Source of the DNA: a virus | Lineage: Duplodnaviria > Caudoviricetes | Length of the DNA stretch: 53,582 nt | Virus record (IMG/VR): IMGVR_UViG_3300036770_002010 | Span: 1-53,582 of that record | Direction: 5' to 3' (one strand) | Shown: in pieces, positions 27,807-43,058 of the stretch | Position numbering within the stretch: position 1 is the first letter of the stretch | How the letters are laid out: the number at the start of each line of letters is the position of its first letter | Program-made: the position numbers and the translations under genes | Notes under the pieces: model-generated | Seen by the model: the letters and a program-made list of their open reading frames with translations, nothing else | What the model was told of the DNA's origin: nothing | Databases searched by the model: none

Positions 27807-28387
27807 AAGTCTCCTTTTTCAGATTTAGTTAGTTTAGAACCACCTTTAGCTCTTGCTGATTGTTTATCTTTAATAAACTCTTCTTCTATCTTTTGATACT
27901 TTTGATATATAGATAGAGAATCTTTCTGTAACATATTTATCTGTGTTGCAGTACCTTTTATTACTATAGTCTTATCTCCAAGAAACTCTGTAGTATCTAA
28001 AGTTAATTCAGTATCAGCTATTAGTTTAGCTCTTTTTCTTAATTGATTCTTTTCTTCTGCATAAGCTCTTTGTACAGCAGTCATACATTCTAATGGATAA
28101 GCCTCTAAGCATTTAACAAAGTCTGGATTATCCCAATCTAAGTCTTTAACAAAAGTTTCTGATAACATTTTCTTTCGTTCTTCAAATGCCATTCTATAGA
28201 ATATATTATCATGTTCATCAGGGTCACACATAAAAAATACAGTCCACATTTGTCGTGATGAGAAATCTTTATCTTTAGACTTATCTTTATCATACAACAA
28301 ATGAAATGGATAATATATCTTAAACTGTGGATTTACTTCCCAGAAGTTAGTAGCTTGGTCTAGTATTCTATAGTTTATCTTAATCAT
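27800..28387 (-). CDS. Conserved hypothetical protein, possible terminase small subunit
   Basis: Helical, basic C-terminus RAKGG...SE; two genes upstream of TerL. Confidence 0.4.
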   Translation of the reverse strand: MIKINYRILDQATNFWEVNPQFKIYYPFHLLYDKDKSKDKDFSSRQMWTVFFMCDPDEHDNIFYRMAFEERKKMLSETFVKDLDWDNPDFVKCLEAYPLECMTAVQRAYAEEKNQLRKRAKLIADTELTLDTTEFLGDKTIVIKGTATQINMLQKDSLSIYQKYQKIEEEFIKDKQSARAKGGSKLTKSEKGDLW

Positions 28388-28644
28388 CTTGTTACTCTTG
28401 CTTTAACAATATATTCCTTAGTATTAATCTTTAATAGTACGAATCTATCAAAGAAATTATCATCAGGATTCTTTACTTTACCAACACTCATATTTAGTGT
28501 TACAGTATTATCTTTAAAACTAGTTGATAAACATCCACAAGATACTTCTGTATGTTCTACTGGTTCATCAACAGTTATAGTTGTTGTGGCTACACTATTC
28601 TCTTTGTGTTCACCTAAATTAATCTCCAACATATATTTCATCAA
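28384..28644 (-). CDS. Small SCGC-motif Ig-like protein (DUF1573-like)
   Basis: VSCGC motif within a beta-strand pattern. Confidence 0.55.
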   Translation of the reverse strand: MMKYMLEINLGEHKENSVATTTITVDEPVEHTEVSCGCLSTSFKDNTVTLNMSVGKVKNPDDNFFDRFVLLKINTKEYIVKARVTR

Positions 28645-28990
28645 GTTTTAGTCTGAATAAACAACGTTTTACACTCGCAGATATTTCACTCATTACATTC
28701 TTAATAGCTTCATCTTTCTCTGTAGCTATAGCTGATTTAAGCATATTATTTAAACCTCTGAAATAAGTAATTACATCATCTGATGGAGGAATATCTAAAG
28801 ACTTAGGTTGTACAATATTAAACGTATCCATCATGTATATTTCTACTAGCGTATCTACTAGAGGTTCTATTTCACTATAATAAGACGATAGTGCTTCATG
28901 AGTTCCTATTCTTCTAATAGTCCAATGTTTATACTTAGCGTATATTAAACTCTGTACTATTGTTGCTACTATTTTACTAAAATTTTCCAT
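28619..28990 (-). CDS. Ferritin/Dps-like four-helix protein
   Basis: HW.....HEAL..YY......VD.LVE pattern. Confidence 0.65.
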   Translation of the reverse strand: MENFSKIVATIVQSLIYAKYKHWTIRRIGTHEALSSYYSEIEPLVDTLVEIYMMDTFNIVQPKSLDIPPSDDVITYFRGLNNMLKSAIATEKDEAIKNVMSEISASVKRCLFRLKLDEIYVGD

Positions 28991-34511: not shown

Positions 34512-34796
34512 TTATTGTATTTTATCTTTTATAAATTCATCAAACTTATCTTCAGGTACTGTATAAACAATTCCATCTATAGTAACCTCATAGTAGTCTT
34601 TAGGTCTTTTAGCATTAGCAATTAAATCATCTTTACCACCCACTCCATATTTCTCAAATTCTTCATGACTTAATAATATTACTTTATCTCCATAAGGTAT
34701 CTCATATAAATTTACTTTCTTTATATTACTTATATCCATAATTAAGTCTTTAGTAGGTATAACAAGGGCAAAACATATTATAATACAGTCAATCAT
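34512..34796 (-). CDS. Hypothetical protein
   Basis: 94-aa ORF; true start may be an internal Met. Confidence 0.45.
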   Translation of the reverse strand: MIDCIIICFALVIPTKDLIMDISNIKKVNLYEIPYGDKVILLSHEEFEKYGVGGKDDLIANAKRPKDYYEVTIDGIVYTVPEDKFDEFIKDKIQ

Positions 34797-35180
34797 AATA
34801 ATTAGTTTAAAACCTCAAACATCTATATAACAATCAAGCTCACATATTTATATGTGAGTGCCTGAAAGGCATACAAAGCCCATTACAACTTTTTTGTTGT
34901 TTTGAGGTTATTTTGATTTTTAAAAGTTATCTAAGTTTTTCACTGGCGGTCTGACTTTCGTTTTACCAAAGAGATTAAATCTCAATTCCTCCGTTTTCCC
35001 TTACCATGAAAATTCTCACCAAGATGGCAGGAGGATACCCTTAAAACTATTAATAACTTTCTTAAACCTAATGAAGTCCTTCGCTTATGTATTGGCTATC
35101 TACTCCAATCTGCTCTTTAGTCGTGTTAATGCTTTGTGACACTACAACTTAGGATTCTTGGTATCCTTAAAGAGGTTAGA
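34797..35180 (-). ncRNA. Candidate structured ncRNA or long leader
   Basis: ORF-free, GC-richer, several hairpins, downstream of a promoter. Confidence 0.4.
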
Positions 35181-35185
35181 TATTG

Positions 35186-35215
35186 CAAATATAAACTAAA
35201 AAAACCACAAAGCAA
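35186..35215 (-). promoter_or_regulatory. Bacteroidota sigma-A-type promoter driving the virion arm
   Basis: Minus strand TTG-N19-TATATTTG(CA), matching the Flavobacterium/Bacteroides consensus spacing. Confidence 0.7.
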
Positions 35216-35224
35216 GTGATTATG

Positions 35225-35386
35225 TTAGTTTAATGAAAAATTATTTAAGTTGCCTATGTCAGTAATTAACTTAACTGTATCAAAATCAATGTCATAGTCT
35301 AAAAGAAACTCAAATATTTCATTGATATTTTTTGCATGAAATTTTAATGGTTGTTCTTTACCATTTAATATTATAGCATACTTCAT
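35225..35386 (-). CDS. Small hypothetical protein (likely start MKYAII)
   Basis: Follows a TATATTTGCA element at 35398-35407. Confidence 0.5.
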   Translation of the reverse strand: MKYAIILNGKEQPLKFHAKNINEIFEFLLDYDIDFDTVKLITDIGNLNNFSLN

Positions 35387-35399
35387 AACTTTTTTCTTG

Positions 35400-35407
35400 C
35401 AAATATA
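35400..35407 (-). promoter_or_regulatory. -7 promoter element TATATTTG
   Basis: TAnnTTTG just upstream of the ATG at 35386. Confidence 0.55.
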
Positions 35408-35674
35408 CACATATATATATATGTACCCCCCGTGTTTTTTAAAAAAAATTAGAGTTGTAAAAGTAGTTTGTTTGTGAGCTGTAGTTAGAAATAAAAAATA
35501 ATGTGTTTACAAGCATCTATATCACAACCCCCACCAACATTTTCAAATTCTTCTACCCCGTCAAAGAATCTAGTGGCAATTGGTGATTGTGGTTGGCTGT
35601 TGTTACTACATAAACTGTAGAATAAAATAGACTTATGTACAGGATATTTCATCTTGAACCAAAACATTAACATT

Positions 35675-35896
35675 ATGAATATTCAAGCAGAAGATTTATT
35701 TGATTCAATTGAGGTATCACGAGGAGTGATACAAAGAATGATTAAATCTATTGATAACCCAAATAGGGATTTATCAATAGATTGTTACACATCTCAAATA
35801 AGAATTGAACTACACAGAATTGGTGTACTTCAGAATCAAATTATGAGAATATTAGAAACAACAGAACTCCGAGCGCAAGCTGGTGGAGTTATGTAG
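35675..35896 (+). CDS. Cassette 1 hypothetical protein
   Basis: ATG after motif copy 1. Confidence 0.7.
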   Translation: MNIQAEDLFDSIEVSRGVIQRMIKSIDNPNRDLSIDCYTSQIRIELHRIGVLQNQIMRILETTELRAQAGGVM

Positions 35897-35901
35897 TAAA
35901 C

Positions 35902-35941
35902 AAGTAGCACATTACATTAGTAGTGTGTTACTTCTCTTTTT
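35902..35941 (+). terminator. Cassette 1 terminator
   Basis: AAGTAGCACATTAC/GTAGTGTGTTACTT stem then T-rich tract. Confidence 0.75.
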
Positions 35942-36029
35942 ATACGTTGTATAAAACTATTAGTATAACTAATGTAATGCAATAGACTTATATAATGGAT
36001 ATTTCATTTTGAATCAAAACCTTTTTATT

Positions 36030-36158
36030 ATGAAAGAATATTTTATGGGTTCTTTTGGAAAAGAACAAAGAAAACTTTTCAATCTTAAAAGATTGAAATC
36101 AAATCCTTTAATCGTTGCTCAAATCATGGATTTAGCAACTAGAAAAGGATGGAAGTAA
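36030..36158 (+). CDS. Cassette 2 small basic protein (42 aa, not in ORF track)
   Basis: MKEYFMGSFGKEQRKLFNLKRLKSNPLIVAQIMDLATRKGWK between motif copy 2 and a terminator. Confidence 0.7.
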   Translation: MKEYFMGSFGKEQRKLFNLKRLKSNPLIVAQIMDLATRKGWK

Positions 36159-36165
36159 AAGAAAT

Positions 36166-36201
36166 AGAGTAGTAGCAATAGTTACTACTCTTTCTTTTTT
36201 T
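36166..36201 (+). terminator. Cassette 2 terminator
   Basis: AGAGTAGTAGC-AATA-GTTACTACTCT then T-tract. Confidence 0.85.
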
Positions 36202-36269
36202 AAAGTAAGTGTATATATATTACACAAACTAATGTAATGGATATTTTATCTTGAACCAAAATTAATATT

Positions 36270-36461
36270 ATGTTTTCACAAGAAGAATTTGGAGAATTAC
36301 TAGTGTTAGCACTAGAAAAAGCGTATGATGATTTAATATCATTACCAAAGAATGAGAAATATTATAATACAAAATTGTATAATACTATTCTCACTCGTTA
36401 TGAAAAAACAGTAGAAATTTGTAATTTCTATGTTGAACATTCAGATGATTTAATATGGTAA
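36270..36461 (+). CDS. Cassette 3 hypothetical protein
   Basis: ATG after motif copy 3. Confidence 0.7.
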   Translation: MFSQEEFGELLVLALEKAYDDLISLPKNEKYYNTKLYNTILTRYEKTVEICNFYVEHSDDLIW

Positions 36462-36467
36462 TAAAAT

Positions 36468-36499
36468 AAGAGTAATAGAAATATTACTCTTCTTTTTTT
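36468..36499 (+). terminator. Cassette 3 terminator
   Basis: AAGAGTAATA-GAAA-TATTACTCTT then T-tract. Confidence 0.85.
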
Positions 36500-36575
36500 C
36501 ATACTATATATTCATATACTTATATAATGGATATTTCTTTTTGAATCAAATGTTTAATCTTAAAAAATAATTACA

Positions 36576-36824
36576 ATGAATTTAAAAAAAGATTTTGGAA
36601 CTGTTTATTTAGAAACAAGTATCAAAAAAGGAGAATTTGATTATTATAAAGCCATTAAATCTTTAATGGATAATAATGGTTATAATACTGCATCTTGTGA
36701 TATTTGTTCAGTAGAAACAGAATGGAATAATGAAGAAGTTGATATAAAATTCAAATTTGTTCATTATTCTGTATCAACTATGAGTACAGAACCTTTCTTT
36801 AAAGTTAAGTTTAAAGAAGCGTAG
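36576..36824 (+). CDS. Cassette 4 hypothetical protein
   Basis: ATG after motif copy 4. Confidence 0.7.
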   Translation: MNLKKDFGTVYLETSIKKGEFDYYKAIKSLMDNNGYNTASCDICSVETEWNNEEVDIKFKFVHYSVSTMSTEPFFKVKFKEA

Positions 36825-36830
36825 TAAAAT

Positions 36831-36860
36831 AGAGTAGTAGAAATACTACTCTTATTTTTT
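36831..36860 (+). terminator. Cassette 4 terminator
   Basis: AGAGTAGTA-GAAA-TACTACTCT then T-tract. Confidence 0.85.
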
Positions 36861-36937
36861 ATACTACACAACTATATATATACTTATATAATGGATATTT
36901 CTATTTGATATTAATTTTTAATCTTAAATCAAAATTT

Positions 36938-37189
36938 ATGGAAATTATTTGTATTTACAAAACAAATAATAATTGTATTGCATTCATTGCACCTTTTTAT
37001 GAAGGTGATGATATACATGAATGTGAAATAGTTTTATCAAACTCTTTAAAAGATAGATTAGAAAATCATAAAAGATTAATGGAATGGGATACAGACCTTA
37101 ATCCATTAGAATTTAATGATTATGAAAAAGCTCATAAATACGCATTTAGTATCGCTTTTAAAGGTCTTGATTATGATGAATATCATTGA
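36938..37189 (+). CDS. Cassette 5 hypothetical acidic protein
   Basis: ATG at 36938 after motif copy 5. Confidence 0.7.
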   Translation: MEIICIYKTNNNCIAFIAPFYEGDDIHECEIVLSNSLKDRLENHKRLMEWDTDLNPLEFNDYEKAHKYAFSIAFKGLDYDEYH

Positions 37190-37198
37190 ATAAAAACA

Positions 37199-37226
37199 AG
37201 AGTAGTAGTAATACTACTCTACTTTT
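37199..37226 (+). terminator. Cassette 5 terminator
   Basis: AGAGTAGTA-GTAA-TACTACTCT then short T-tract. Confidence 0.75.
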
Positions 37227-37343
37227 ATACTTCGTATAAAACTATTACTATAACTAATGTTAATGTAATTAATAGATGCACTTATATAAAGGATATTCCC
37301 TTTTGTTATAGTTTTTTTGTTTTACTTTTAAAAACTTTTAAAG

Positions 37344-37820
37344 ATGGCTTTAGGCACTAAATCCACTACAAAGACTCCTGCTAACGCAGTTGAGTCTGTG
37401 AAGAACATCAATAATATCATCCATTTCATGGCTGAGATTACTGACATTCGTGAATGCAATAATCCAGAACTTCAAGAAGTTGTGGATGATATTGCATACT
37501 ACAAGTCATCTTCTGGTTCACTCTACCTATGGGCAGAGTGTACTCGCGAAGATGGTTTGTCTCAGTCAGCCATGTTGTTCCAAAATGTCTTATTCGACAA
37601 AAATGGTAAACAACGTTACGAAGTTGGCTCTGTCGTGCCAATCGATGCCGTTGTTACCAGCAATTCTGCCAAAGAAGATTCTCTGCTTTGGAAAATTGCA
37701 CCTCCAGGTGTTGCACCCAAAGTATCGTTAGACAAATTGTCTTCCGATTCTAAATGGGTACAAGCTGTACGTTCTGGCTCTATCAAGCCTTACGTACCAC
37801 CTGGATTGAAACTTAAATAG
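37344..37820 (+). CDS. Cassette 6 hypothetical protein (GC-richer codon usage)
   Basis: 158-aa ORF after motif copy 6. Confidence 0.75.
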   Translation: MALGTKSTTKTPANAVESVKNINNIIHFMAEITDIRECNNPELQEVVDDIAYYKSSSGSLYLWAECTREDGLSQSAMLFQNVLFDKNGKQRYEVGSVVPIDAVVTSNSAKEDSLLWKIAPPGVAPKVSLDKLSSDSKWVQAVRSGSIKPYVPPGLKLK

Positions 37821-37833
37821 TTTCAATAGAGTT

Positions 37834-37867
37834 AAGAGAGTTAGCAATAACTCTCTTCTCTCTTTTT
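37834..37867 (+). terminator. Cassette 6 terminator
   Basis: AAGAGAGTTA-GCAA-TAACTCTCTT then pyrimidine tract. Confidence 0.8.
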
Positions 37868-38339
37868 CAACTATTTTAGTTGATTAGATACTGGGAACTA
37901 ATGCGCGGAGCTAATGCCCGACTGTCGCTGTTACACTTTTACTTTCTTTGTTACACTTTTGCGTTTTACTGTCTAACTATTTGTAGTTAAAATGTTGATA
38001 GTGAATGAGTTGAGTGTGTGAATGGGAGTGATTACTCATCAAACACCCATTTTCAACTCATTTCGCTATTGATACCATTTGTTATATCTTGATAATACTA
38101 TTTAGTGTTAATGTAAAATATTTGATTAAAACCTAATTTACGAAGACAAGTATTGCAGCTTGTATGTATTAAATTAGGCATCAAATAAAAAAACTTAATA
38201 ACTTTCCAAGTTGTCGAGGACACCAGTTTCTTTGATAAATACTATTGTAAAGACCGTAATTGGAACGACTTTAGTTTAATTGTTGCAACGACAGTTTATC
38301 AAAGTTTTAGGTGTAAAACACAAATCAAAATCAATTAAT

Positions 38340-38705
38340 ATGAAAAATTTATTATGGTGTGCAAATCACCAACCATTACAAGAACAACTTGATTCATTAA
38401 ATGAAATGGGTAATGTTATCTTTTTAAAAGATATATATCCTGATATTATGAATCAATTGAGTAACACTCCACCAAGTAGAAGTGAATGTAGGATTTTAGC
38501 TGGTACTATTTCAGTTATTGCTGAAGAGTTAGATGCTAAGATTGTACAGTTAGGTGGTAGTCCATTATTCTTAGTAATGGCAAGTCCTATTATTGGTAGT
38601 GGTAGAATGATATTCGCTGATTCAGATAGAATATCAGAAGATATACCACAACCAGATGGTAGTGTTAAAAAGATTTCAACTTTTAAACATAAAGGTTGGT
38701 CTTAG
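38340..38705 (+). CDS. Csx20-like (CARF-related) protein, candidate ring nuclease
   Basis: NH...EQ, SNTPP, QLGG, S.R.SE...QPDGSVKK.S.FKH.G motifs recalled from the Csx20 family. Confidence 0.55.
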   Translation: MKNLLWCANHQPLQEQLDSLNEMGNVIFLKDIYPDIMNQLSNTPPSRSECRILAGTISVIAEELDAKIVQLGGSPLFLVMASPIIGSGRMIFADSDRISEDIPQPDGSVKKISTFKHKGWS

Positions 38706-38712
38706 TATTACA

Positions 38713-38738
38713 GTAGAGTGGTAGTAATATCACTCTAC
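38713..38738 (+). terminator. Hairpin of the cassette-terminator family
   Basis: GTAGAGTGGTA-GTAA-TATCACTCTAC; weak T-tract. Confidence 0.55.
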
Positions 38739-38859
38739 GATTGTTAATTAATAATATGATATGAAAACATTTAAGACAGAGCTGAAAACTCTTTAAACTT
38801 ATTCTAAGTGATTTAGAAATCACGTATGTCCTGACTTTAACTACAGAGTAATTAACTGT

Positions 38860-39060
38860 GGGAATGGACTCTAACTTTAATGTATCATTCTAGTTTCACA
38901 AGGACTGGCAGTTGTAATAATATTCTCCCATCGTGGTAAGAACAGAGAACTATACTATGTGAGTATAGAATAAAATAATTTCATTGTATTGAAATACATC
39001 TATTACAACTGAATACAGAGTGAATAAAAAAAATCTCATTTGAGGACACTAGTTTCTTTT
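38860..39060 (+). ncRNA. Candidate multi-stem ncRNA
   Basis: Perfect 11-bp closing helix (38909-38919 with 39001-39011) enclosing three hairpins. Confidence 0.5.
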
Positions 39061-39237
39061 ACTTATGTTTAATTAGAGTAATTAAAATTATTTAGTTTAA
39101 AGCTTAGAGTATTACATCAACCTAGGATAAGATGTAATATGCTCAAAACCGCAACTTACTAAATAACTCTTGAATTAAACCGAACAAATTGTAAAAGTTT
39201 TATAGTGTATTTTTATTATTAACCAAAACCTAAATAT

Positions 39238-39432
39238 ATGAATAACAGAACAAAGATTACTAATGATAAATTCTCTATAAGAATTTGTCAAATAGCTTCT
39301 AATTATGGATTTAAGAATATTGGTAGTTTCCATAAATTCTTAAAGCAATGTAGTCCTAATGCTAAATTAGGATTAGAAATGGGTCACATAAGAGTGGCTA
39401 ATATCCTCAAAGAAGTTGAGGAATGTTTTTAA
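39238..39432 (+). CDS. Hypothetical protein
   Basis: 64-aa ORF with A-rich leader. Confidence 0.55.
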   Translation: MNNRTKITNDKFSIRICQIASNYGFKNIGSFHKFLKQCSPNAKLGLEMGHIRVANILKEVEECF

Positions 39433-39617
39433 ATAAAAAACTCAATAACAATCAAAGTTATTGGAGACATTAGTTTCTTTATAATACATTAAGACGAAGT
39501 TAGTATGATAGACGAAATCACAATTAAGTGCTACAGTTTAGTAAAAATATCATATAACTAGTGCGTAAGCATTGGGTTAAGCAGTTAAGTAAAAATTAAT
39601 GTATTGTAAAGTTTTAA

Positions 39618-39851
39618 ATGTCTTATTTTATACTAAATAAAAACCTATATATATATATGACAGATAAAGTTTGGGGATTAAAATCTAGTGCTATAACATC
39701 TAAGAATGATATAGCATATCATGGTTCTACTATTAAAGTAGAACATACTTGTATTAGAGGAAAACTATTTACTTACTATCAATTAGTTGATAATAATTGG
39801 ATAGAAATTACTGAAGAAGAACTTAGAGTATTATTAAACCAAAACTTATAA
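39618..39851 (+). CDS. Hypothetical protein (start may be MTDKVW)
   Basis: ORF coupled to the next gene. Confidence 0.5.
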   Translation: MSYFILNKNLYIYMTDKVWGLKSSAITSKNDIAYHGSTIKVEHTCIRGKLFTYYQLVDNNWIEITEEELRVLLNQNL

Positions 39852-39855
39852 TATT

Positions 39856-40095
39856 ATGACAAAAGAAAAGATTTACTGGAAAATGCGTAATGGTAATTTA
39901 ATAGACATAGATGATATGGATATTGAACACTTACGCAATACGCTAAAACTTGTGTTAAGAAATAGAGAAACAGTTATTAAAAGAATTGTTGAAGCTAAAT
40001 CTAAACGTAAGTTTAAATTACAAGGGGATATGGCTAATGAGTTTAACAAAAGCCAATATGAGAATGACGAATACGATGAATCATTAATGCACTAA
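39856..40095 (+). CDS. Conserved small phage protein
   Basis: W....G..I.I.DM...HL.N motif common in phages. Confidence 0.65.
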   Translation: MTKEKIYWKMRNGNLIDIDDMDIEHLRNTLKLVLRNRETVIKRIVEAKSKRKFKLQGDMANEFNKSQYENDEYDESLMH

Positions 40096-40097
40096 TT

Positions 40098-40907
40098 ATG
40101 AGAAAGAAAGTAATTGATTATGTACCAGAAAATAAGAGTTTACCTCTTATAGTTGGTATATTAACAGTTACTGCTTTCATTCTAGGAGTTAAGTATTCTA
40201 ATAATGGAATGTACTATGAACAATCAGTAGTACCAGAGACTAAGTTTTTCACTATATTTGAAACTAAAATTGATACAGTTTTTGTAGAGAAAAAAGTTAC
40301 AGAAGCAGTTATTAATGAAGATGCTTATGGTGATAGAAATTATGGTCACAGTATTAGAGGACTTAACTTAAAAGAGTTAAGGCAGAAACTAACAAACATG
40401 GGATTTAAACACTTAAATAATATAGATTTATTTAAGATGCGTAGAATATGGTTGTTATACAACTATGATGATATGCTAATGAATGTCCATGTACTTACTG
40501 ATTTTCCTGTTAGTATGATTTATAGCTTCTTTATTATAGAAGCTACTACAGCAGGAATAGAAACTGACTTATGGCGATTACATGCTAATGCTGGAGGTGT
40601 TAAAGCACTCAAAGGTCATAATCATGTAACGTATCGTACTCGAGAGGTGATTAGAGGTAGAAACAAATACATCAAAGCTAAATTCTTTAGTAGTAAGAGT
40701 ACTAAAGATGGCATTAAATTGTGGTCTGGAGTATTAAACTCTGATAGATACAAGAAATGCAAAATATATGATGTCAAACCTCCACAACTTTACAAGAAAA
40801 TCTGTAAGTGTATCTACAAGAGTGGATATCATACAGATACAGACTACGAATTTAGAGCTTCACTAATGTCAGAATATTGGGACTTAAAGAAACATTTACC
40901 TGAATGA
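40098..40907 (+). CDS. Membrane-anchored GH73/glucosaminidase-like peptidoglycan hydrolase
   Basis: N-terminal TM helix; IIEA, N.GGVK, T.E, RY and GYHTD..Y motifs. Confidence 0.65.
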   Translation: MRKKVIDYVPENKSLPLIVGILTVTAFILGVKYSNNGMYYEQSVVPETKFFTIFETKIDTVFVEKKVTEAVINEDAYGDRNYGHSIRGLNLKELRQKLTNMGFKHLNNIDLFKMRRIWLLYNYDDMLMNVHVLTDFPVSMIYSFFIIEATTAGIETDLWRLHANAGGVKALKGHNHVTYRTREVIRGRNKYIKAKFFSSKSTKDGIKLWSGVLNSDRYKKCKIYDVKPPQLYKKICKCIYKSGYHTDTDYEFRASLMSEYWDLKKHLPE

Positions 40908-41362
40908 AATCAGAAATGTTTAAAGTAAATGTAGTATCTTTATGTTATAAGCAGAAATACGATACTACAGATTATCCAATAATCAATAACAGTAAAACAG
41001 CAGCTGATATATTCTTTGAATCATGGGATAAAGATACTATAGCACTTGAAGAACAACTAAAAGTGTTATATCTTAATCGTAGAAATCAAGTTATTGGCTT
41101 ATATACTGTTAGCGTTGGTGGAGTTGCGGGAACTGTTGTGTGCAATAAGAAAATACTTGCATGTGGACTTAAAATAGTTGCATCGGGAATGATTATTGCA
41201 CACAATCATCCTTCAGGAAATAAACAACTATCAGAACAAGATAGAATAATTACTAAAAGTTTAAAAGAATGTGGTAAAATAATGGATATAAAATTATTAG
41301 ACCATATTATTTTGTTACCTAATGGTAATTTTGTATCTTTCGCTGATAATGCGGAATTTTAG
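40904..41362 (+). CDS. radC: RadC-like JAB/MPN domain protein
   Basis: E...V.YLNRRN, IIAHNHPSGN...S..D...T, LLDHII. Confidence 0.9.
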   Translation: MKSEMFKVNVVSLCYKQKYDTTDYPIINNSKTAADIFFESWDKDTIALEEQLKVLYLNRRNQVIGLYTVSVGGVAGTVVCNKKILACGLKIVASGMIIAHNHPSGNKQLSEQDRIITKSLKECGKIMDIKLLDHIILLPNGNFVSFADNAEF

Positions 41363-41806: not shown

Positions 41807-41927
41807 AGCAAGGTGGCGGAATTGGTAGACGCTATTATCTGAAAGGCTGAATGCGAGTAACTTCGATGTTACATAGACCTTGGTAGGTAGGAACAGCCAC
41901 ATGTGAGTTCGAATCTCACTCTTGCTA
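41807..41927 (+). tRNA. tRNA-like RNA (Leu-type D arm) without a canonical anticodon arm, 121 nt
   Basis: Acceptor AGCAAGG/TCTTGCT, D arm GCG-GAATTGGTAGA-CGC, T arm GTGAG-TTCGAAT-CTCAC. Confidence 0.7.
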
Positions 41928-42005: not shown

Positions 42006-42127
42006 AGTCAAGTAGCTCAGTGGGTTAGAGCAACTGGTGACGACGGTTCGAGTCCGTTCCATACGAAAGTATGAGGTGTGTAGGGTATCAAGCGAGTGTG
42101 TCATAGGTTCGAATCCTATCTTGACTA
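42006..42127 (+). tRNA. tRNA-like RNA with a 55-nt anticodon-loop insert, 122 nt
   Basis: Acceptor AGTCAAG/CTTGACT, D arm GCTC/GAGC, stem ACTGG/CGAGT, T arm ATAGG-TTCGAAT-CCTAT. Confidence 0.72.
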
Positions 42128-42776: not shown

Positions 42777-43058
42777 ATGAAAGCATGGACTTTAGAACAG
42801 GAAGCTGTAATTCTTCAAACAGTAAAAGAGTATCCTAATGTATGGGAAGCACTTGATAAAAGCGCTTTGATACTAAATAGAACTCCTGCAGCAGTAAGAA
42901 ATCGTTATTATAATCATCTTAGACGAGCTAGAGTTACTAGAAAATCTCAAGAGAAATGTATAGTAATTGACAAAAATACTGTATCATCTTACAAGAAGGA
43001 ATATAAACAGCAGGAAGATGTGACGATTATAATTCTACACATCAGAGGAAAGAGATAG
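42777..43058 (+). CDS. Myb/homeodomain-like HTH protein
   Basis: WT.EQE..IL.......LNRTPAAVRNRYY. Confidence 0.65.
   Translation: MKAWTLEQEAVILQTVKEYPNVWEALDKSALILNRTPAAVRNRYYNHLRRARVTRKSQEKCIVIDKNTVSSYKKEYKQQEDVTIIILHIRGKR

Follow-up and report, generated by a model that had tools for sequence, protein, structure and literature searches.

The Csx20-like gene and its family

The window analyzed here is the whole IMG/VR record IMGVR_UViG_3300036770_002010, a linear DNA of 53,582 bases with a G+C content of about 0.30 and an estimated completeness of 49%. At positions 38340-38705 its plus strand contains an open reading frame (ORF), with an ATG at 38340 and a stop codon at 38703-38705, that codes for a 121-amino acid protein (P0001). 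From the sequence alone, an original prediction had proposed that this protein is similar to Csx20 of type III CRISPR loci and that it could degrade or sponge cyclic oligoadenylates. The 121-amino acid ORF and every motif quoted in that prediction were found in the translation: N9-H10...E15-Q16, S41-N-T-P-P45, Q70-L-G-G73, and the C-terminal S95-D-R-I-S-E-D101..Q104-P-D-G-S-V-K-K-I-S-T-F-K-H-K-G119. An alternative in-frame TTG start at 38280, leading to a 141-amino acid product, is possible; the methionine at 38340 is the start in most relatives, and M1 is invariant in an alignment of 30 of them (alignment A1). No rival long ORF was present on the opposite strand at 38340-38705.

In a large protein collection, relatives of P0001 formed 67 clusters with 49-95% identity, all of them metagenomic. 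The ratio of nonsynonymous to synonymous substitution rates (dN/dS), calculated from 21 full-length coding sequences, had a median of 0.22 (183 of the 210 pairs, those with 0.05<dS<2), and the gene thus evolves under purifying selection. The size of the family and this dN/dS value indicated that the ORF is a real gene, and ruled out a chance or non-coding ORF. Its annotation as a coding sequence of the Csx20 family is supported, in addition to the ORF itself and dN/dS, by the profile matches, the AlphaFold2 model, and the predicted homodimer described below.

Scans of P0001 retrieved no Pfam family at E <= 10 and no match in PHROGs. The NCBIfam model NF040559 (CAS_Csx20) matched it with 22.8 bits (E 9.5e-5), residues 7-118 of the protein aligning with positions 4-119 of the 124 in the model, and the PADLOC Csx20 models matched it over its full length (E 6.8e-6 and 3.2e-4). 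The precomputed label PF27247.1 was carried by 66 of 67 close relatives. In order to place P0001 within the family, three reference sets were used: A1, as a profile of the 30 phage-clade relatives; A2, a wider phage-like profile; and A4, containing 20 canonical Csx20 sequences. With the A1 profile, 745 cluster representatives were retrieved at E <= 1e-3, and 238 of them reached E <= 1e-10; among the best 149 of these 745, taken outside the clade, 128 matched NF040559 at E <= 1e-3. A canonical Csx20, scoring 145.6 bits on NF040559, was found in a Bacteroidota metagenome-assembled genome (G001), where its gene lies directly downstream of one coding for a CARF-PD-(D/E)xK effector (PDLC01880, E 1.4e-59). 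PF27247.1 was present on all 120 relatives of this protein among the matches listed, and NCBI names some of them Csx20. The A1 profile also matched the two Bacteroidota proteins that lie above the NF040559 cut-off, with 36.2 and 26.3 bits, and hhalign comparison of A1 with the 20 canonical sequences gave a probability of 98.1% (E 1.1e-13, 118 aligned columns). At the level of profile comparison, these results established full-length homology of P0001 to canonical Csx20 within the family in its wide, PF27247-level sense, and upheld the identity originally proposed; by the same evidence, P0001 is a true but divergent relative of Csx20, outside the narrow NCBI equivalog, whose curated cut-off is 70 bits.

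One member of the phage-like subfamily is encoded directly after Cas6 in an archaeal metagenome-assembled genome. When ten representatives of this subfamily were looked up by cluster, no informative name was retrieved. The A1 search also listed fusion-type relatives, including P0204 (227 amino acids) and P0197 (264 amino acids), the latter with an N-terminal part similar to the C-terminal domain of the RNA polymerase alpha subunit and its Csx20-like part at residues 132-256. Another relative, P0207 (261 amino acids), matched the phage-clade profile and NF040559 in two stretches each.

Conserved residues and predicted homodimer

Fifteen residues were invariant in the 20 canonical Csx20 sequences: H10, Q16, D69, Q74, G75, F77, G78, Y97, T99, T100, R102, F120, H122, F125, and R126. 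These sequences also matched the Csx20 motifs that the original prediction had given, in the forms [SN]H..T..Q, WS.[IV]PP, and ATT.R...E....DGSV.....F.H. In the phage clade, H10 and Q16 are kept at the same positions, Q74 as Q70, R102 as R97, F120 as F115, and H122 as H117; T100 is replaced by a serine (S95) and Y97, conservatively, by F92. The canonical loop Q-G-D-F-G-A (containing G75, F77, and G78) is changed to Q-L-G-G-S-P, T99 is changed to D94, and the C-terminal F-R (F125 and R126) is not kept, being W-S in the phage clade. In 71 viral homologues from IMG/VR, all of which scored higher on A2 than on the canonical profile, H10 and Q16 were found in 45 of the 45 aligned there, F115 in all 71, and R97 and H117 each in 70 of the 71. 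Q104, D106, G107, and K111 were invariant in the 71 sequences, a result that is partly circular since these residues belonged to the search pattern.

The AlphaFold2 model of P0001, obtained from the 30-row alignment, showed a predicted local distance difference test (pLDDT) value of 94.3 and a predicted template modeling score of 0.81. It consists of an alpha/beta domain with the order strand, helix, strand, two short helices, long helix, strand, helix, and C-terminal beta-hairpin, this last one being long and spanning residues 93-103 and 109-120. Judging from the hairpin geometry given by the secondary structure, and not from coordinates, S95, R97, S99, and D101 should share one face of the hairpin with K111, S113, F115, and H117. 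Two structural comparisons had been suggested in the original prediction, HHpred and Foldseek. The profile part, carried out with hhalign, recovered Csx20, as described above (98.1%), and Foldseek of the model against the Protein Data Bank (PDB) gave no match at E <= 1e-3. In a viral structure library, the model matched A0A5Q2WBQ4 (E 5.2e-8, TM score 0.76) and A0A6J5NYB9 (E 3.7e-4), both uncharacterized phage proteins, and a profile search of PDB sequences yielded chance coiled-coil matches only (best E 0.26). The fold searches for P0001 are undiagnostic, their matches being too weak to inform on the ligand.

Prediction of two copies of P0001 gave an interaction score from aligned errors (ipSAE) of 0.74 (0.74, 0.75, and 0.71 in the separate runs), and the highest value among three controls was 0.00; at least 83% of contacts were common to the runs, and the partner pLDDT was at least 86. 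In the calibration of this procedure, 20 of 30 proteins whose structures were solved as one-chain pairs attained the mark, as did one of 23 solved as single chains. P0001 is thus predicted to be a symmetric homodimer; the score expresses likeness to a dimeric family and is not proof of dimerization, since the model may already have knowledge of related dimers. The predicted interface comprises residues 45-47, 70-76, 78-83, 86-87, 90, 92, 94, 118, and 121, so that both the invariant R47 and the loop Q70-LGGSP-75, on the two-fold axis, form part of it. CARF dimers bind cyclic tetra-adenylate (cA4) at the two-fold axis.

Since this pocket loop is remodeled and residue 94 is variable, P0001 might be a ring nuclease or binder for cyclic tri-adenylate (cA3), cyclic hexa-adenylate (cA6), a messenger of cyclic oligonucleotide-based antiphage signaling systems (CBASS), or another cyclic oligonucleotide, and counter another or an additional defense. 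We consider this rather unlikely: in a survey of type III loci, every ring nuclease was found together with cA4 effectors (Hoikkala et al., 2025; PMC12409355), a relative from the phage-like subfamily still adjoins cas6, and the fold matches are too weak to point to any ligand.

Phage context, apparent cassette exchange, and distribution

The minus strand of the window between 268 and 34796 contains genes assigned by PHROGs to a large terminase, a portal, a major head protein, tail fibers, and an amidase, and the plus strand from about 43 kb onward contains genes for a DNA polymerase, helicases, a Sak4-like protein, and a primase. The nearest match of the terminase was to that of Cellulophaga phage phi14:2 (29.5% identity, E 7e-73), followed by those of Bacteroides crAss-like phages. 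Based on this gene content and on the kinship of the terminase, the window was assigned to a crAss-like phage, whose host is probably a member of the Bacteroidota. A megablast search with positions 30000-53582 against phage records gave no match.

The Csx20-like gene is located in a block of small genes on the plus strand, between a divergent region (approximately 34.8-35.6 kb) and the replication genes. No Cas protein or CARF effector was found among its neighbors, and the gene is neither within nor beside a type III locus, in agreement with the stand-alone early-region copy originally described; missing cas neighbors are to be expected for a viral copy. Neither an Aca-like gene of the ribbon-helix-helix (RHH) or helix-turn-helix type nor a Csx15-like or other defense-related family was detected among these neighbors.

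The gene is preceded by a promoter-like 18-nt motif, GAGGACACCAGTTTCTTT, at 38216-38233 (plus strand), which starts 124 nt upstream of the start codon. There is a second copy at 39042-39059, ahead of the small ORF 39238-39432, and a third, weaker one with three mismatches at 39463-39480, ahead of ORF 39618-39851. These three matches, all on the plus strand, compare with 0.12 expected in the window. When the 300 nt preceding the orthologue were searched in 27 loci, the window included, 14 of them had the exact motif, at a distance of 112-278 nt; some contigs are shorter than the 300 nt. We infer a promoter function for this motif. Starting 8 nt after the stop codon, a hairpin (GTAGAGTGGTAGTAATATCACTCTAC; 38713-38738, plus strand) was found; relatives keep it in two forms, one with a G-C pair in the stem where the other, by a compensatory change, has A-T, and it is probably a terminator or an RNA-processing site. 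A scan of 34700-40200 detected 11 terminator-like sites versus 1.1 +/- 1.1 in shuffled sequences. With its own upstream motif and its hairpin after the stop codon, the Csx20-like gene is therefore a self-contained cassette.

Thirty-four related loci (4 viral and 30 metagenomic) have the gene in the same early region, and it is usually less conserved there than its neighbors when amino acid identity to the window is compared. The Csx20-like product was 74% identical in L039, where the flanking genes reached 87-99%; 72% in L040, with flanks at 90-100%; 68% in L045, with flanks at 88-95%; and 62% in L048, where the product of the flanking 37344 ORF was 96% identical. The position of the gene also varies, since it lies ahead of the homologues of the 36270 and 37344 ORFs in L050 and L053, and is the first gene after the divergent region in L051 and L052. 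In three loci (L047:677-1054, L051:1561-1938, and L052:2543-2917) the ORF just downstream holds a Csx20-like fragment corresponding approximately to residues 47-75, through the QLGGSP loop, joined to an unrelated N-terminus and lacking the C-terminal hairpin. These second copies were rejected as paralogues, as they are fragments fused to other sequence; they look like the scar of a cassette exchange.

Other early genes surround this cassette. Its upstream neighbor, 37344-37820 (158 amino acids), had no family match in any library, and a look-up of its product in the ESM Atlas retrieved unnamed viral clusters only (at 0.89). Between otherwise similar phages this product is either 88-96% or just 36-43% identical, so it is apparently a second swappable early cassette. 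Positions 35600-37860 contain six tandem early cassettes, each formed by a promoter-like repeat of about 50 nt, a small ORF, and a hairpin; the repeat core, ACTTATATAATGGATATTTC...TTGAA, occurs at 35623, 35978, 36219, 36510, 36874, and 37272, the hairpins are of the AGAGTAGTAG...CTACTACTCT type, and the small ORFs gave no family match. Just downstream of the Csx20-like gene, the early region encodes a RadC-like JAB domain protein (40904-41362, E 3.8e-31) and a Myb-like DNA-binding protein (42777-43058). Rfam tRNA matches were found at 41807-41927 (33.9 bits) and 42006-42127 (49.5 bits); their long spans, 121-122 nt, are due to about 50 extra nucleotides in or next to the anticodon arm, and the insert in the second match holds a T-loop-like GGTTCGAGTCC. 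ARAGORN called no tRNA in the window.

A tblastn search of phage records with P0001 retrieved a single record, MW202458.1. This unrelated siphovirus, with a circular genome of 42 kb, carries a Csx20-like gene with 30% identity (28282-28701; locus L010) as a lone plus-strand gene among minus-strand genes, in a moron-like arrangement. The same search with a canonical Csx20 (P0218) gave no match. In IMG/VR, 72 Csx20-like loci were found with two short peptide patterns, and a scan of genome contigs with alignment A3 gave only four; since the peptide patterns differed between the scans, this comparison is suggestive only and does not amount to a clean test of enrichment. Hoikkala et al. (2025; PMC12409355) found Csx20 in four of 28,114 phage genomes, Csx16 in two, and AcrIII-1 in 36. 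Virus-borne Csx20-like genes are thus much commoner in metagenomic viruses than those four curated genomes suggest, and the commonness of the non-canonical subfamily in uncultured viruses is a modestly new finding.

An alternative is that P0001 serves a purpose outside host immune signaling, such as phage regulation or nucleotide metabolism, and reuses the Csx20 fold for it. No member of the phage-like subfamily was found among the 401 Bacteroidota genomes sampled (seven of them matched the profile, the best two with canonical Csx20), so there is no direct host counterpart, and the available text of the published accounts, which list viral Csx20 copies and propose them as anti-CRISPRs, contains no assay of any of them. 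We nevertheless consider such a role very unlikely. Homology to a CRISPR-associated family and the kept polar residues fit counter-defense better, and so do the location among small, fast-evolving early cassettes and the independent presence of the gene in unrelated phages (MW202458.1; the 72 IMG/VR loci).

A broader scenario, which we regard as conceivable if unlikely, is that P0001 belongs to a large, mostly virus-borne branch of Csx20 with a remodeled dimer-axis pocket (QLGGSP for QGDFGA, and a variable residue 94), whose gene would be swapped as a fast-diverging cassette among near-identical crAss-like phages and whose substrate range would possibly have shifted (to cA3, cA6, or non-CRISPR cyclic oligonucleotides) or become broad. 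If so, cassette turnover may record an arms race with the signaling defenses of the host.

Proposed function and comparison with known systems

We consider it fairly probable, from the homology of its sequence, that P0001 counters type III CRISPR as a ring nuclease for cA4. The homology to Csx20, the kept polar residues, the purifying selection, the early-region context, and the predicted dimer back this proposal. P0001 is a divergent Csx20-type protein, small and CARF-like, that is carried by a virus, and according to the proposal its cassette would be expressed early during infection by the crAss-like phage. Cas10 produces cA4 as a second messenger; the symmetric homodimer would bind this molecule across the two-fold axis and, by homology to one canonical Csx20, would cut it to linear products without a metal. 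In this way cA4 would be held below the level that activates effectors such as Csx1, Can2/Card1, and the like, an outcome that would parallel that of AcrIII-1 and would be reached by an unrelated fold. In this scheme we infer the ligand, the catalysis, the timing of expression, and the effect on immunity. The original prediction had described Csx20 as a cA4 ring nuclease, in agreement with a published assay in which the purified enzyme degraded cA4 completely and, when ten times as much of it was used, cA3 as well (PMC12409355). In addition, the large cyclic oligoadenylate output of type III systems has been argued to favor enzymes over sponges (PMC13148439).

Several points weigh against this proposal. 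P0001 scores far below the equivalog cut-off of NF040559 (22.8 versus 70 bits), though the match spans its full length, and none of the 149 nearest cluster representatives passed it, the top score being 61.9 bits; this places the phage protein outside the subfamily of the one assayed enzyme. The replacements of QGDFGA by QLGGSP, T99 by D94, and FR by WS affect residues that are invariant in canonical Csx20, and since changed residues lie in or next to the predicted dimer-axis pocket, the ligand or the activity could differ. The catalytic residues of Csx20 are not named in the available part of the published text on this protein. Finally, as the sister family Csx15 illustrates, a small CARF-like CRISPR protein may bind its ligand and turn it over only very slowly (PMC13148439).

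This last point raises the alternative that P0001 is a sponge or damper, binding cA4 or another cyclic oligoadenylate tightly with little or no turnover, as reported for Csx15. Phage sponges for other immune signals have been cited (PMC13148439), and the pocket-loop residues of P0001 differ from those of the assayed Csx20 type. Sponging has been argued, however, to be ineffective against type III systems, given the abundance of the messenger, and Csx15 has not been seen in phage genomes, according to the available text of the same paper (PMC13148439). Moreover, H10, S/T95, R97, and H117 are kept across the canonical and viral subfamilies, which would fit a chemistry beyond binding, and we consider the sponge quite unlikely.

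Ring nucleases decide whether type III CRISPR signaling kills, arrests, or spares the infected cell. Among those of viruses, AcrIII-1 has been described as characterized, and so has a SAVED ring nuclease of viral origin that is cited under the name AcrIII-2 (PMC13148439). The closest known systems considered, apart from those discussed below, included Crn1 (Sso2081) and the CARF and SAVED sensor domains. P0001 would share with AcrIII-1/Crn2 (DUF1874) the proposed role of a small viral homodimeric enzyme that destroys cA4 against type III CRISPR; the two families are unrelated, P0001 having no Pfam family, on the assumption that DUF1874 was in the Pfam copy used. Csx15 is likewise a small CARF-like CRISPR-associated protein that was once grouped with Csx20 as a candidate ring nuclease (PMC12409355); it differs in being a strong binder of slow turnover, reported as absent from phages (PMC13148439).

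The likeness to canonical Csx20 (NF040559; PF27247) is greater. Both are single domains of about 120-135 amino acids related by a full-length profile match (98.1%); they share H..T..Q close to the N-terminus and, in the C-terminal hairpin, [ST]-x-R...DGS[VI]..x.F.H, and the published AlphaFold 3 model of Csx20 is a dimer (PMC12409355), as is predicted for P0001. They differ in their genetic context, since P0001 is phage-encoded whereas the canonical gene lies beside cas10 or CARF effectors. The window copy resembles the published csx20 genes from phages and prophages in the proposal of a cas-derived ring nuclease gene on a mobile element as a likely anti-CRISPR (PMC12409355, PMC13551039), and it is probably a counter-defense gene of a kind already proposed in print. 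A 2026 paper described csx20 homologues in acr-type operons, upstream of the RHH regulator Aca14 that controls them (PMC13551039). Unlike those csx20-aca14 operons, the window copy has no detected RHH Aca gene beside it and is located in an early cassette of a crAss-like phage. Since Csx20 was already known in phages, the gene opens no new category. What is modestly new is the non-canonical subfamily, its frequency in uncultured viruses, and its residence in a fast-diverging early cassette; compared with the systems already described, P0001 provides a well-defined test case, being compact, confidently modeled, and known in dozens of natural variants, from a crAss-like lineage that is abundant and uncultured.
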